Shown here in pieces: positions 3,891 through 8,281 of a DNA stretch of 51,780 nt (positions are counted from its first letter, which is position 1; each line of letters begins with the position of its first letter). The DNA comes from an uncultured Pseudomonadota bacterium. Lineage in GTDB: Bacteria; Pseudomonadota; Alphaproteobacteria; RF32; CAG-239. The DNA lies in the NCBI GenBank assembly GCA_949295475.1, contig CASFLC010000131.1:1-51780 (forward strand). Reading direction: 5' to 3'. The notes below the pieces were generated by a model. The model saw nothing but the letters and a program-made list of their open reading frames with translations. It was not told where the DNA came from and made no database searches. The position numbers were made by a program, and so were the translations under genes.

Positions 3891-5156
3891 TCAAAAGATA
3901 TCGCCGCCCTCTTCCACCGGAATTTTATTGCGCATCAGGCGAAGATATTTAACCCGCGTGGTCCAGTTTTTTTTCAAAACGATTTTTTTGGCACTGCCGT
4001 AAGTGTAAATCAGCTTCCACCAGCGGTCCGAAATGTTTTTCCACAACATTTTGCGGCGGATTTTATAAGTGCTGTAATGCAGCATAAATCCCAGATAAGA
4101 ATTGATGCTGGAAACAAAATGCTCGGCCTGCTCGGCATAAGCGGCATTTTTGGCGGCCACGGCGTTGAACGTTTCAATCTTCCGATACAAATTTCCCTTG
4201 GTGCGGTTGGCAATATAAACGCGCCCCGGCTTAACCACCGCGCCGATAAATTTGACGCCCTTGCTGAAATGCTGCAGATACACTTTGCGCGGATGCAGTC
4301 TCAGCCCGAGTTTTTCGGCAATAAAGCGGCGCAGCTTGTCCTGAATTTTTATCAAAAACTGCTTGTCCGGGTGCACAATCACAAAGTCATCGACATACCG
4401 CCCGTAATATTTGACCTTGAGCTCGTTTTTGACATACTTGTCAAAGGCGTCCATATAAAAGTTGGCAAAAATCTGGGATGACAAATTGCCTATCGGCAGC
4501 CCGTGCAGATTATCCGCCTTAAACAGGCTTTTGGAGGCGGGCAGCCCGTCCCAGTTGCTGCGTTTGCCCTTAATGTTGCAGTTTTGCTGCGGGCAATGAT
4601 AAACGATAATCTTCACCAGGCCGAGAATAACCTCCTTATCCACGGCGTGATAATATCGGCGGATAAACTTCTCCAGCCGCTTATACAGAATATCTTTGTT
4701 TATGCTCATAAAAAAAGACTGGATATCCATTTTGAGAATATAGCAGTCTTTTTGATAATTTTCGGAACACTCGCGGACAAACTCCTCAATCCGCCGCACG
4801 CCGTACATCGTTCCCTTGCCGGCCCGGCAGCTATAGCTGTCGCGGATAAACAGCGCCTCAAACAAAGGCATCAGCTTATTAATCACCAGATGATGCACGA
4901 TACGGTCGCGAAAATCGGCGGCAAAAATCTCTCTTTTGACCGGTTTGTTGACAATAAAAGCGATGGATTTTCCCGGATAATAGGTCTGGTTGTTAATCTG
5001 GCGCCACAGTTCTATCAGGCGATGTTCAAAATCCCCCTCAAACTCCAGAGCGTTAAACGTTTTGCGTTTGTTGCGCCGACAATCGTAATAAGCGGCAAAC
5101 ATTTCCTCCAGCTTTACGGGCTCGGCATAAGAGGTATCAAATAATTCAAGCTGCAT
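3891..5156 (-). CDS. DGR reverse transcriptase
   Basis: ORF 3891..5225 was trimmed to the first ATG (5156) because the GTG-started extension overlaps TR1. RT motifs present: FRDRIVHHL, SYSCRAGKGT, DIQSFFMSI, LPIGNLSSQIFANFYM (DGR-type I/LGxxxSQ motif 4), YGRYVDDFVIV, GVKFIGAVV. Confidence 0.9.
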   Translation of the reverse strand: MQLELFDTSYAEPVKLEEMFAAYYDCRRNKRKTFNALEFEGDFEHRLIELWRQINNQTYYPGKSIAFIVNKPVKREIFAADFRDRIVHHLVINKLMPLFEALFIRDSYSCRAGKGTMYGVRRIEEFVRECSENYQKDCYILKMDIQSFFMSINKDILYKRLEKFIRRYYHAVDKEVILGLVKIIVYHCPQQNCNIKGKRSNWDGLPASKSLFKADNLHGLPIGNLSSQIFANFYMDAFDKYVKNELKVKYYGRYVDDFVIVHPDKQFLIKIQDKLRRFIAEKLGLRLHPRKVYLQHFSKGVKFIGAVVKPGRVYIANRTKGNLYRKIETFNAVAAKNAAYAEQAEHFVSSINSYLGFMLHYSTYKIRRKMLWKNISDRWWKLIYTYGSAKKIVLKKNWTTRVKYLRLMRNKIPVEEGGDIF

Positions 5157-5215
5157 AGCACACCAACAAAGCCAATGACCGGGATTACCCTTTTTGTTCA
5201 ATTTTATTTCCAAGA

Positions 5216-5331
5216 GCGAGGACACAACGAACGCGGTTATTGTTGTTGTTCTTATTGTTGTTGTTCATATCGCCGTCGGACGGTCTCACAACCCACGCGT
5301 TGTTGTTGTTATTGTTCTCGGACGAAGACCA
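5216..5331 (-). repeat. DGR template repeat TR1 (RT-proximal)
   Basis: The coding strand would encode WSSSENNNNNNAWVVRPSDGDMNNNNKNNNNNRVRCVLA. It is collinear with VR 6637-6688, with 7 mismatches, all at TR adenines. Confidence 0.85.
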
Positions 5332-5483
5332 ACCATACAATCCTGACTGCCCGTTTTGGTCTTAACAACCGCGCTTTGCGGCTGTCGGCAGTCCTTTTGA
5401 AAATAAAACATGCTCGCTCCGTACGGCCGTAACCATACGAATTCCGGCAAAAATGCTGCTTTTGTTTAACTTTACTTCCAAGA

Positions 5484-5600
5484 GCGAGGACACAACGAAC
5501 GCGGTTACTGTTATTCTTATTGTTGTTGTTGTTGTTCATGTTGCCGTCGGACGGTCTGACGTTCCAGGCGTTATTGTTATTGTACTCGGACGAAGACCAG
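5484..5600 (-). repeat. DGR template repeat TR2 (avd-proximal)
   Basis: The coding strand would encode WSSSEYNNNNAWNVRPSDGNMNNNNNNKNNSNRVRCVLA. It is collinear with VR 6570-6643, with 13 mismatches, all at TR adenines. Confidence 0.85.
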
Positions 5601-5779
5601 ACGCACAATCCTGACTGCCCGTTTTGGTCTTAACAACCGCCTTCTGCGGCTGTCGGCAGTCCTTTTAAAAGTAAAATATGCTCGCTCCGTACGGCCGTAA
5701 CCGTACGAATTCCGGCAAAACTGTTTTTTGTCGCAGCGTTTCGGACGCTTCTCAAAAAAATAACGGCCGCAGGCGGTTT

Positions 5780-6121
5780 TTATTTGCCCCTGTTTTTCCA
5801 AGCGGTTATCTGCTTGCCGATGCTGTCGGTAATCAGCGCTATCTCGGCCATTTTTTTATACGATAATAATTTGAGGTCCAGGCAGACTCTTATTTGCAGC
5901 TTCAACAGCTCAAAATCATCCAGAAACGCGTCCAGAAATTCCCGTTTGTCCTGATTTTTGTTTGCCCGATACAAGTTGCGAAACAGCGAAAGCGTATCTC
6001 TGCGCATGTCCTGCCCCAAACTGAACTTGTACTCGCGGGAAAACGTATTGGTGACTTTGTAAATCTCCAACAGCAAACGATAACTGTCACGATAAACCGG
6101 TAATTCACTGTATATGGCCAC
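5780..6121 (-). CDS. avd: Avd-like accessory variability determinant (small basic helical protein)
   Basis: 113-aa ORF with a GTG start, in the canonical Avd position between target and TR. It is basic and predicted helical, in the size range of four-helix-bundle Avd / 23S-rRNA-IVS family proteins. Assigned mainly by position. Confidence 0.7.
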   Translation of the reverse strand: MAIYSELPVYRDSYRLLLEIYKVTNTFSREYKFSLGQDMRRDTLSLFRNLYRANKNQDKREFLDAFLDDFELLKLQIRVCLDLKLLSYKKMAEIALITDSIGKQITAWKNRGK

Positions 6122-6164
6122 GCTGCCCGTCCTTTGTTTTTTGGTTTATGGTAATCCCGGCACA

Positions 6165-6223
6165 ATTATACACTGTGCACCCGAAACGTTTATTCTTATA
6201 TAAAATGTTTGTTTAAGTTGCAA
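6165..6223 (-). promoter_or_regulatory. candidate promoters for avd-TR-RT
   Basis: On the minus strand: TTGCAA (6223-6218)-N17-TATAAG (6200-6195), and an extended -10 TGTATAAT (6172-6165) about 40 nt upstream of the avd GTG. Confidence 0.3.
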
Positions 6224-6246
6224 CCCTCTTTCTTAATTTATCCACA

Positions 6247-6404
6247 CCCACACGGTGGGAGCGAAAACTGGCTGCCTAAATAGCCTTTAAGTGGGCGCGC
6301 GATGCTTTTTCGGGACTGCCGTTTCTCCGTGCCTGATGTCTACCACCCAGCGGGTGGAGGCAAGATCTAAGCGGAGGCGGAGGGGATTCCACTTTTCTGC
6401 AGAT
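6247..6404. repeat. conserved element, copy A (unknown function)
   Basis: Hairpin 6247-6259, block 1 6266-6301 (aactggctgcctaaatagcctttaagtgggcgcgcg), hairpin 6343-6357 with loop agc, block 2 6367-6374 (ctaagcgg), block 3 6384-6404 (ggattccacttttctgcagat). Homologous to copy B at 8486-8602. Confidence 0.6.
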
Positions 6405-6468
6405 TTGATGCCGATTGACGGAATAATCTTTAAGCGGCTGCGGTTTGTTTTTTCAAAGCCGCAAAACG

Positions 6469-6496
6469 CCGCCTTCAAGCTAAAGCTTGAAGGCGG
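6469..6496. other. perfect 13-bp-arm inverted repeat
   Basis: ccgccttcaagct aa agcttgaaggcgg, lying between the target stop codon and element A. Confidence 0.6.
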
Positions 6497-6511
6497 AAGG
6501 CAGAAAAAAAT

Positions 6512-6543
6512 TTTACCTCTCGCGGCAAGCCGCGAGAGGTAAA
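6512..6543 (-). terminator. GC-rich hairpin 3' of VR (target-gene terminator and/or DGR target-recognition hairpin)
   Basis: acctctcgcgg caag ccgcgagaggt, extended by 3 A-T pairs. It lies 22 nt past the stop codon and is followed on the minus strand by aaaattttttt. Confidence 0.55.
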
Positions 6544-6562
6544 TAGTTGAAGGGATAAATAG

Positions 6563-7351
6563 TTAAAAAGCGAGGACACAACGAACGCGGTAACTGCCAA
6601 GCTTATTGTAGTTGCTGGCGTACATGCCGCCGCCGGACGGTCTCACAACCCACGCGTAGGTGTAGCTACTGAGCTCGGACGAAGACCAGTAATAAGCATT
6701 TTGAAGTTGCGTCTTCGACAATTTTTGAAGCCCTAAGTTAATAGCCCCATAACTGAAGTTCATCACATACAGCTCTCCGGCTGCCGGTAAATACCACCCG
6801 CTGCTGCCTTTACCGCTTGAGACAGGCTTATAAGTATTACAGTATTCTGCTGCCGGATAGCTATTGCTACTGCTGTAATTTACAATACATGAAGTATTCG
6901 TCGCACCTCTGAAATCTGTTTGTGCTTCTGCCGTACTACTATAATCTGTTAAACACGATAAATTCTCATAACTCGGAGTAGACCATCTCAAAGTCGAGCT
7001 ACTCTCCTCCAACGCCACCGCAAATCTCGTCGAACCGGCAACATAAGCCACTATACCGACCGGGGTCTTGCTCGGAATAACACTGTCCGATACCGTTCCA
7101 TCAGAATACAGAATCGATCCGGGTGCCGCTCCGGCCGCAGAATCTCCCGCCTCCACGCAGAAATATTTGCTGCTGTCAAACGGACAGACCAGACTTTCCA
7201 TGCCGTCGCAATCCGATGCCGATTTCTTATACCCCAATTCCGCACATCTGGTCGAACTCGTACAGTTCTGCGCCAGAACCGGCGTCATCGCCGTGCTGCA
7301 CAGCAGTAATGCCGCTATTACCGTTTTCATCGTCTTTATCCGCTTTCTCAT
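6563..7351 (-). CDS. DGR target: secreted DUF1566 / C-type-lectin-fold-like protein with C-terminal variable region
   Basis: 262 aa. Signal peptide (MKTVIAALLLCSTAMTPVLA), a Cys-rich N-terminal stalk, WYLPAAGEL and YYWSSSE...RVRCVLAF motifs typical of DUF1566-type DGR targets. The last ~40 codons are the VR. Confidence 0.85.
   Translation of the reverse strand: MRKRIKTMKTVIAALLLCSTAMTPVLAQNCTSSTRCAELGYKKSASDCDGMESLVCPFDSSKYFCVEAGDSAAGAAPGSILYSDGTVSDSVIPSKTPVGIVAYVAGSTRFAVALEESSSTLRWSTPSYENLSCLTDYSSTAEAQTDFRGATNTSCIVNYSSSNSYPAAEYCNTYKPVSSGKGSSGWYLPAAGELYVMNFSYGAINLGLQKLSKTQLQNAYYWSSSELSSYTYAWVVRPSGGGMYASNYNKLGSYRVRCVLAF
6570..6689 (-). repeat. DGR variable repeat (VR)
   Basis: 120 nt homologous to TR1/TR2. 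Encodes WSSSELSSYTYAWVVRPSGGGMYASNYNKLGSYRVRCVLA. The adenine-free 22-nt 3' end is identical to both TRs. Confidence 0.9.
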
Positions 7352-7396: not shown

Positions 7397-8281
7397 TTAC
7401 AGGCCGCTCCAATAAGCTTCTTCATTAAAGCTGCCTTCAACGCATCCCGTCGCGCAATATTTGCCCGAACATTCCTCGTAACTGCACAGAGTGTTCTCCG
7501 GACAACTGTCCAGCGTGCACTCATACAGACATTTTTTGCAATTGTCATACAAAACCTTGCTGCCGCTCTGACAACTCTTCGACCCTATCTCCGCACCGTA
7601 CCGGCATTCACTGAACCCCTCGCACGGGTTTATCTCTATCTTGTACTTTGTGCCCGTGCAGCTCTCGCAACGTTCCGTCTCAATATAGCCTTCCGGGATT
7701 TCTCCGTAATCGTACCCTTCGCACAAATTGCAACAGGTCCCGTAGCTGCTGTCATATCCGCAGCGGCCGTCCAAACTCAGTTGCCACCCTTCCGAACAAC
7801 TCTTGACATAGCCCTCGCAGGCCTCTTCCACGTTTAACTCGCATCTGCTGTACTTGCCGCCGCAGCTGTTACCGCTCGTGTAATACGGCGGCTGACAATT
7901 GTCGTCATCGTACTGATAAACATCCGCACAGCGACAATTGGCATAACAGCGCAAATTCGGAAGCGGTCGTTGCAATGTTCCGCTCGCGCCGCTTTCGCAC
8001 GCAGAAACCATCCCATAATCTTCGCACCGGCGTTCGCCGTCCCCGCCGTCGGACGGGCCGGAAACATCCGGGGCGTTAATGTTGCTGTTGTAAATGTTTT
8101 GATAATCCGGAAGCCAGTATACTTTTGCCGTCCGATACGACTCCCCTTCGTTTGAAAATTCTCGGATATCCGGAGCCAGCCTCAGTGGTGTGTGTTGGTG
8201 TGTGCAATAGGCCGGATGACTATATAAACCGAACAACACTGTTGTAAATGCTGCCATGTACTTCGTGCTCATTCTGCTCAT
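7397..8281 (-). CDS. Cys-rich secreted protein with repeated CEGY/CEGF-type modules (unknown function)
   Basis: 294 aa with a hydrophobic N-terminus. 28 Cys in total, 27 of them in the last ~205 residues. Ends 46 nt upstream of the target gene on the same strand and has a good SD (agaagaagg). Confidence 0.65.
   Translation of the reverse strand: MSRMSTKYMAAFTTVLFGLYSHPAYCTHQHTPLRLAPDIREFSNEGESYRTAKVYWLPDYQNIYNSNINAPDVSGPSDGGDGERRCEDYGMVSACESGASGTLQRPLPNLRCYANCRCADVYQYDDDNCQPPYYTSGNSCGGKYSRCELNVEEACEGYVKSCSEGWQLSLDGRCGYDSSYGTCCNLCEGYDYGEIPEGYIETERCESCTGTKYKIEINPCEGFSECRYGAEIGSKSCQSGSKVLYDNCKKCLYECTLDSCPENTLCSYEECSGKYCATGCVEGSFNEEAYWSGL

Follow-up and report, generated by a model that had tools for sequence, protein, structure and literature searches.

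The window analysed here, a stretch of 51,780 nucleotides (nt) from contig CASFLC010000131.1 of an uncultured alphaproteobacterium of the RF32 lineage, contains a complete diversity-generating retroelement (DGR). All of its parts lie on the minus strand, in the order target gene, avd, two tandem cassettes and reverse transcriptase (RT) gene (Table 1). Each cassette holds one template repeat (TR), and the single variable region (VR) of the locus, at the end of the target gene, is a mosaic of the two TRs. Judged by its sequence, the RT is a DGR-clade enzyme. Among solved structures, 8ub7_A (328 aa, 'Reverse transcriptase'; E 4e-35) is by far the closest relative, and we take it to be bRT of BPP-1. 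This match scores far above those to group II intron and retron RTs, and the translation holds the DGR-type IGxxxSQ motif (IGNLSSQ) together with YVDD. An alternative RT start, a GTG at 5225, would overlap TR1. Avd reaches 65.8 bits against Pfam bAvd, above the cut-off of 40 bits, and 59.8 bits (E 3e-16) against NCBIfam DivGenRetAVD, below the curated cut-off of 80 bits. The target protein matches Pfam Lcl_C/DUF1566 over residues 164-259 (E 8e-10, 39.5 bits, cut-off 34.9) and has 217 homologues whose C-terminal loops are variable; no sequence match was obtained for it in the PDB. An RT, Avd, TR/VR differences restricted to adenines and a C-terminal VR in a DUF1566 domain are thus all present, and more than one TR accompanies one RT gene, both in the window (two cassettes) and in relatives (one to eight).

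Table 1. Coordinates of the DGR and its upstream neighbour in the window (position 1 is the first letter of the window)
Feature	Position	Strand	Description
DGR RT gene	3891..5159	(-)	422 aa from ATG 5159; Pfam RVT_1 E 3e-19
Cassette 1	5188..5455	(-)	adjoins RT gene; RNA element ~5332-5455, TR1, 28-nt tail 5188-5215
TR1	5216..5331	(-)	116 nt; WSSSE-NNNNNN-AWVVRPSDGDM-NNNNKNNNNN-RVRCVL; template of VR 5' part
Cassette 2	5456..5723	(-)	adjoins avd; RNA element ~5600-5723, TR2, tail 5456-5483
TR2	5484..5599	(-)	116 nt; WSSSE-YNNNN-AWNVRPSDGNM-NNNNNNKNNSN-RVRCVL; template of VR 3' part
Long-range helix pair, cassette 2 element	5614..5660	(-)	GGACUGCC...GGGCAGUC around GACAGC/GGUUGU; cassette 1 equivalent ~5346-5392
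Stem-loop, cassette 2 element	5686..5709	(-)	8-bp stem, UACG cap; cassette 1 equivalent ~5418-5441
avd accessory gene	5780..6121	(-)	113 aa; Pfam bAvd E 6e-18
Two perfect hairpins	6469..6543	(-)	3' of target stop codon; arms 6512-6526/6529-6543 and 6469-6481/6484-6496; terminator-like, candidate target-recognition hairpins
Target gene	6563..7351	(-)	262 aa; N-terminus signal-peptide-like; C-terminal Lcl_C/DUF1566 domain bearing the VR
VR	6570-6688	(-)	119 nt, at target gene 3' end
VR 3' part, TR2-only match	6570..6626	(-)	57 nt; 11-codon loop, K and S in register; includes 3' end CGCGTTCGTTGTGTCCTCGC
Crossover interval	6627..6643	(-)	in adenine-poor block common to both TRs; bounded by informative sites 6626 and 6644
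VR 5' part, TR1-only match	6644..6688	(-)	45 nt; 6-codon loop and AWVV
Cysteine-rich secreted protein gene	7397..8281	(-)	directly upstream of target

The two cassettes are head-to-tail copies of a 268-nt unit and start 268 nt apart, and they are supported by the direct repeat itself, by matches to a profile of the unit and by helices backed by covariation. Each follows the same plan of a structured RNA element (~125 nt), an AAC-rich TR of 116 nt and a short tail. Because of its place between these two genes, avd and RT, the array is probably transcribed together with both. All TRs and VRs of the species have in common a 5' block (TGGTCTTCGTCCGAG), a central adenine-poor block (AGACCGTCCGACGGC) and the 3' end listed in Table 1. 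With regard to the directional 3' element of DGRs (IMH versus IMH*), the TRs and the VR also share CGCGTTCGTTGTGTCCTCGCT, after which they part, the TRs continuing with CTTGGAA and the VR with TTTTAAC. The VR stops 4 nt short of the target stop codon, and a 14-bp hairpin begins ~20 nt beyond that codon; similar hairpins follow the VRs of relatives. A search of the window with the three conserved blocks, allowing up to three mismatches, listed no TR or VR beyond the three known copies, and tblastn gave no second target paralogue in its 51.8 kb.

The mosaic composition of the VR emerges when an alignment is allowed to change templates. Jump-allowing dynamic programming placed a single joint, with 61 nt read from TR1 (8 mismatches at adenines) followed by 59 nt from TR2 (11 mismatches at adenines). 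All 19 mismatches on this two-template path fall on template adenines, and it has neither a non-adenine mismatch nor a gap. Against one template alone, the best alignment leaves three non-adenine mismatches and a 3-nt gap for TR1, and five non-adenine mismatches and a 3-nt gap for TR2; adenine-only differences are found along the two-template path and with neither TR singly. The loops of 6 and 11 codons in the VR are likewise a combination that neither TR encodes. An earlier note on this DNA had arrived at the mosaic by hand alignment, and re-alignment reproduced exactly both of its gap-free pairings, VR 6570-6643 with TR2 5484-5557 (13 mismatches) and VR 6637-6688 with TR1 5280-5331 (7 mismatches), all at template adenines. 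The ~268-bp duplication that it described and the failure of the reciprocal pairings were recovered as well, and its crossover at 6627-6643 is borne out by the last TR1-specific site of the VR (6644) and the first TR2-specific one (6626). Its lengths had to be corrected: with identical anchors (TGGTCTTCG...CCTCGC) the TRs measure 116 nt each, not 116 and 117, and the VR 119 nt, not 120, while the one-codon excess of the VR stands. A third template collinear with the whole VR, which the note had named as a possible alternative source, was found neither in the window nor in the third TR of the sister strain described below.

As a control, simulated VRs were derived from a single TR by random changes at adenines (45%), and the gain from a template jump was scored. 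For the window, none of the 70 trials showed a gain; for the sister strain (L001), 50 trials reached 1.5 at most, and for L050, a more distant lineage (63% RT identity), 20 trials gave 0. The observed gains are 36.5, 22 and 16 score units, respectively. Adenine mutagenesis alone does not yield the mosaic pattern.

Mosaic VRs recur within the species. The sister strain, with an RT 98% identical to that of the window, has three TRs (a, b and c), of which b resembles TR2 and c resembles TR1, while a is like b in its 5' part and like c in its 3' part; the second loop has 11 codons in TR2 and 10 in b. Its DGR-adjacent VR consists of b (40 nt, 6 mismatches at adenines) joined to a (75 nt, 11 mismatches at adenines), with no non-adenine mismatch. 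Two further VR-bearing genes were found on the same contig, ~29 kb from the RT gene and beside clpX, a position that would precede the start of the window. The first of these remote VRs joins b (49 nt) to c (53 nt), again without non-adenine mismatches, and in the second an initial 22 nt of a/b type give way to 95 nt of c. The single VR of the earlier note therefore holds for the 51.8-kb window but not for the sister strain, which has at least two more. Such additional VR-bearing targets had been named there as grounds for doubt; they do exist in the species, yet being mosaic themselves they widen the reading rather than refute it.

Within the sister strain, same-type halves of different VRs (b and likewise c) bear different adenine substitutions and are therefore not copies of one another. 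This observation, from the one genome with three known VRs, argues against recombination or gene conversion at the DNA level, by which paralogous targets, each with a VR written by a single TR, would have exchanged halves without the RT. Such an exchange would have substrates at hand, as several paralogous targets that are 66-89% identical occupy different loci with near-identical VR flanks, and their N-terminal regions look shuffled. However, identity of 15-25 nt is short for RecA-type exchange. Unbroken VR-VR identity in the central block amounts to only ~15-25 nt after mutagenesis, which suffices for 5' integration by a DGR (>=8 bp; PMC3240598). We regard exchange between paralogues as improbable.

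Other contigs of the species carry VRs composed of c and a TR2-type part (L116), of a and c (L118) or of pure b (L035). At the DGR-adjacent position, recognised by the downstream flank and hairpins or by a following avd, the orthologous VR is c + b' in the window (TR1 in the 5' part, TR2 in the 3' part), b + a in L001, pure c in L117 and pure b in L120. Because its composition differs in these four strains, the same locus must have been written by different TRs; orthologous VRs differ across strains in adenine sites as well as in template type. These compositions leave little room for the VR being a relic that was copied from one ancestral TR before the duplication, with later changes confined to the 3' half of TR1 and the 5' half of TR2. 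Codon-sized indels do arise in TRs from strain to strain, as the second loops of TR2 and b illustrate, but here about ten informative differences would all have to sit on opposite TR halves. Moreover, pure a-, b- and c-type VRs coexist in the species with reciprocal mosaics (b+a, b+c, a+c, c+b), pure c and pure b copies occupy the adjacent-VR locus itself, and the 19 adenine substitutions of the window look fresh and are accompanied by no non-adenine change. We give a relic hardly any credence.

The pattern extends to other lineages. In L050 the VR joins 72 nt of u2 to 49 nt of u6 without non-adenine mismatches, while the VR of L006 is pure u2; the six-cassette array of L006 is similar to that of L050, with u1 and u4 identical and the other TR segments close variants. 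Together with further mosaics in L013, L094, L049 and L100, patchworks of several donors were found in the window, L001, both VRs of L032 (a contig with remote sister-strain VRs), L050, L116 and L118. No polarity rule was found for the cassette that supplies the 3' half, as both directions are seen. A rival reading is an assembly chimera, with TR1-type and TR2-type VR haplotypes, from the population or from paralogues, joined via the shared central block. The data are wholly metagenome assemblies of a hypervariable, multi-copy region, and coverage is low in many contigs. Against this, the mosaics come from independent samples and differently named assemblies (k127_, NODE_, scaffold_), and the shared block of 15-28 nt lies under the final k-mers of such assemblers, which usually exceed this length. 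A chimera would, besides, presuppose that both TRs had written VRs with identical flanks, and we consider an artefact of this kind very improbable.

Conservation of the tandem TRs in related genomes, a check proposed in the earlier note, was followed through the clade. RT scans gave 31 loci in species-representative genomes and 80 more in metagenomes; loci were fetched and oriented on the RT gene, and cassettes were counted by a profile of the 268-nt unit. The related contigs belong to uncultured gut Alphaproteobacteria, and the array is present throughout, with one to eight head-to-tail cassettes between avd and the RT gene. Three cassettes were counted in the sister strain (98% RT identity), one or two at 80%, seven at 74%, one to six at 63%, seven or eight at 60% and two to five at 59%. 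Clade contigs often start or stop inside the array or the VR (L120 1583-1703; L002 1-48; L063 12-129), which suggests that such repeats are broken or collapsed by short-read assemblers and that the counts are therefore lower bounds; part of their spread may stem from assembly collapse. All but one of the distinct TRs (136 of 137) are open in the VR frame and AAY-rich, the sole exception being a frame-setting error, and TRs within one array differ chiefly in loop length and non-adenine scaffold residues. The cassettes thus look functional rather than decaying.

A structured RNA element stands directly upstream of each TR, single-cassette loci included; in arrays, the element of the next cassette consequently lies downstream of every TR except the last. 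It was analysed in an alignment (A1) of 48 diverse cassettes with 21 base pairs in four helices. In A1, 96.7% of cells are paired, and double-change cells number 146, whereas shuffles gave 39 ± 7 and slid partners no more than 32; compensatory changes occur at 16 of the 21 pairs. In the element, an 8-bp stem capped by a YANG tetraloop (UACG in the window) is connected through an A/U-rich linker to a long-range helix, inside which a second hairpin is found. Helix 2, the stem-loop, has compensatory changes at all seven of its pairs and 94% of cells paired, and in helices 3 and 4, with compensatory changes at 8 of 12 pairs, 97-99% of cells are paired. The helix coordinates of the window (Table 1) were derived by hand from the first row of A1. 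Rfam returned nothing relevant on 5100-6700, only a chance CrcZ match (E 0.17), and the folding z-score of the whole array (-1.7) was uninformative. A priming duplex between GAGCGAG of the element and CTCGCTC at the TR 3' end (7 bp in the window) was considered and rejected, as a CTCGCT/CTAGCT polymorphism is uncompensated in other lineages.

Taken together, we consider it likely that the mosaics arise by retroelement-mediated joining, in which cDNA from any cassette rewrites any VR, wholly or in part, at a shared block. Rewriting by any cassette is proposed because the blocks shared by TRs and VRs are what DGR homing needs. In BPP-1, information transfer begins at the VR 3' end, at least 8 bp of homology are enough for the 5' joint, cryptic internal sites are usable, and the 5' joint 'may occur via template switching' (PMC3240598). 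By analogy, adenine-mutagenised cDNA from any cassette would home to any VR, anchored at the 3' end, and the 5' junction would form where the cDNA meets short homology, often in the central block. One TR would thereby contribute the first loop along with scaffold residues to the VR, and another TR the second loop. Two routes could lead to the same product, namely one cDNA that switched cassettes or a 3'-anchored partial conversion laid over an older full-length one. These routes, template switching and successive partial homing, cannot be separated by sequence. The data show the anatomy of the locus, the pattern of mismatches, recurring mosaics and conserved cassettes; that the retroelement made the joints, by either route, we infer. 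As VRs combine parts of different TRs, diversity would be generated at two levels, by adenine mutagenesis inside the loops and by cassette exchange, which would alter non-adenine scaffold residues and loop length. The earlier proposal of a VR built from two tandem TRs is thus upheld by conserved arrays, recurring mosaics and one locus differently templated among strains; combinatorial diversity of sequence and loop length is supported too, though across several VRs and not, as it had been put, from one.

Several points weigh against retroelement-mediated joining. Each VR and TR is an assembly consensus from metagenome assemblies. Mosaicism is not obligatory, since roughly every second VR in multi-cassette loci is a pure copy of a single template. 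In the sister strain, the remote VRs (L032 1184-1312 and 1987-2123; L033; L034) are identical in contigs from three samples, so at least these do not seem to turn over fast. The RNA element lies upstream of the TR, in contrast to BPP-1 and many other DGRs, in which a priming spacer and a tetraloop-capped Avd-binding stem-loop lie downstream (bioRxiv 10.1101/2023.10.23.563531). Finally, a collinear hybrid TR could be missing from the assemblies, because tandem 268-nt repeats are prone to collapse and copy number ranges from 1 to 6 among close relatives.

This last point is the basis of the strongest alternative, in which a hybrid TR (TR1 in its 5' part, TR2 in its 3' part), formed by unequal crossing-over in the array, is the real template of the VR and was either collapsed in short-read assembly or has since been lost. 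Several observations fit such a history. Arrays at 63% RT identity have 1, 2, 3, 4, 5 or 6 cassettes, contigs often break at the array (L120 ends within the first cassette), modules are shared among TRs, as in the b-like and c-like parts of a, and several single-cassette assemblies have a VR that is not collinear with the sole TR (gaps of 3-11 nt). Nevertheless, the three mosaic VRs of the sister strain would demand three different missing hybrids, and the arrays of L006 and L050 are similar, yet one VR is pure and the other mosaic. Further, near-identity extends over more than 120 nt in the flanking element but the block shared within TRs spans just 15-28 nt, so crossovers should mostly shift copy number instead of making hybrid TRs. 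We therefore consider a lost hybrid template unlikely and continue with retroelement-mediated joining.

A more far-reaching version of retroelement-mediated joining is put forward only tentatively. RT-Avd might switch between neighbouring cassettes of one multi-cassette RNA within a single round of cDNA synthesis, and the array might be a combinatorial library maintained by selection, in which scaffold residues and loop lengths are varied in addition to adenine-encoded positions, as in an RNA-mediated counterpart of the pilS and vls systems. In Neisseria (pilE/pilS), Borrelia (vlsE/vls) and the chicken immunoglobulin pseudo-V genes, an expressed segment is rebuilt from silent cassettes by RT-free DNA-to-DNA recombination. 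The DGR of the window is like these systems in that a patchwork is drawn from an unexpressed donor array with conserved blocks and differing loop sequences and lengths. It differs in that the donors lie within a retroelement and the copy is also adenine-mutagenised; the logic is alike, without homology.

Among DGRs, the closest comparison is BPP-1 (mtd VR, avd, one TR, brt), with which the locus shares an RT nearest to 8ub7, Avd, the order target-avd-TR-RT, adenine-only differences and a C-terminal VR in a ligand-binding domain. A hairpin, as a candidate for target recognition, likewise follows the VR. Integration of the 5' end through short homology, known from BPP-1, would account for the joints (PMC3240598), and the 8-bp YANG-tetraloop stem of the RNA element resembles the Avd-binding stem-loop (bioRxiv 10.1101/2023.10.23.563531). 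Unlike BPP-1, which has one TR, there are two cassettes here and one to eight in relatives, the VRs are mosaics of templates, and the candidate target hairpin follows the VR at 20-35 nt rather than 4 nt. No BPP-1-type priming RNA was found directly downstream of the TR; the ~57 nt from the last TR to the RT start are without a strong hairpin. Surveyed multi-target and multi-TR DGRs (remote targets in Treponema denticola and Legionella; Stenotrophomonas sp.) are similar in combining one RT with several VRs, some of them remote, or with more than one TR, and DUF1566/Lcl_C-type targets as in the window are known from surveyed DGRs (PMC6642488). Such surveys, however, merely count multi-TR loci or set them aside as special cases. 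A large DGR survey of 2017 treats multiple and remote targets, and a term search of it found nothing on multiple TRs. The literature searched yielded no description of regular head-to-tail cassette arrays, of their conserved RNA element or of VRs drawn from two TRs. The labels TR1 and TR2 in two papers of 2025-26 denote engineered templates and not natural multi-TR loci.

DGRs are thought to vary adenine-encoded positions only, on a fixed scaffold and at a fixed length, and a library of intact cassettes of conserved structure, their halves recurring in VRs in fresh pairings, would lift both limits. If true, the mosaics would be the first evidence from natural sequences for internal cDNA joining, hitherto seen in engineered BPP-1 constructs only, and the question of how cDNA is integrated at its 5' end, by template switch or homology search, could be put to the test in a two-cassette construct. 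Such loci will be mis-scored by DGR finders built to expect a single collinear TR for each VR. Cassette arrays also suggest a design for multiplexed DGR-based directed evolution.

Some templates and targets of the clade depart from the common pattern. TRs with few AAY codons (6-9, compared with 13-19), though still open, occur in long arrays (L028 5453-5723, cassette 6; L022 1034-1225, cassette 2; L010 4291-4480) and may be templates that transfer fixed instead of mutagenised sequence. On the L043 contig, a TR-like copy with scarcely any adenine substitutions (L004 42-166) stands ~100 nt ahead of the first cassette, and avd is absent from the interval. Its match runs on past the end of the TR, and the copy reads like a mix of both TRs. 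As a possible out-of-register third template or unmutated VR, nearly free of mutations and matching beyond the TR, it was not counted as a mosaic VR. One remote VR of the sister strain (L032 1184-1312) has non-adenine changes at its 3' end (GTTGTACCCT for GTTGTGTCCT) and no downstream hairpin, and may belong to a disabled target. Target paralogues of the species stand at unrelated chromosomal sites, beside flagellar genes, exbD/tolQ-type genes or clpX/clpP (L119 69-851; L035 473-1234; L032 1338-2108), and their N-terminal signal regions look exchanged among them.

In the window, ~350 nt of non-coding DNA (6122-6470) separate the target terminator hairpins from the avd start. Presumably the promoter of the avd-cassettes-RT transcript lies in this region; a consensus scan listed no promoter-like site there, and Rfam gave no match. 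No exact-sequence record was found for the RT and P0017 proteins, and the cysteine-rich protein encoded upstream of the target had no Pfam or NCBIfam match. A fragment of a homologous gene precedes a remote target in L035, where 11-436 match window 7828-7403 with 90% identity, and genes also stand upstream of remote targets in L032 (1-1308) and L116 (2-433). The target and the cysteine-rich gene may travel as a duplicated pair.

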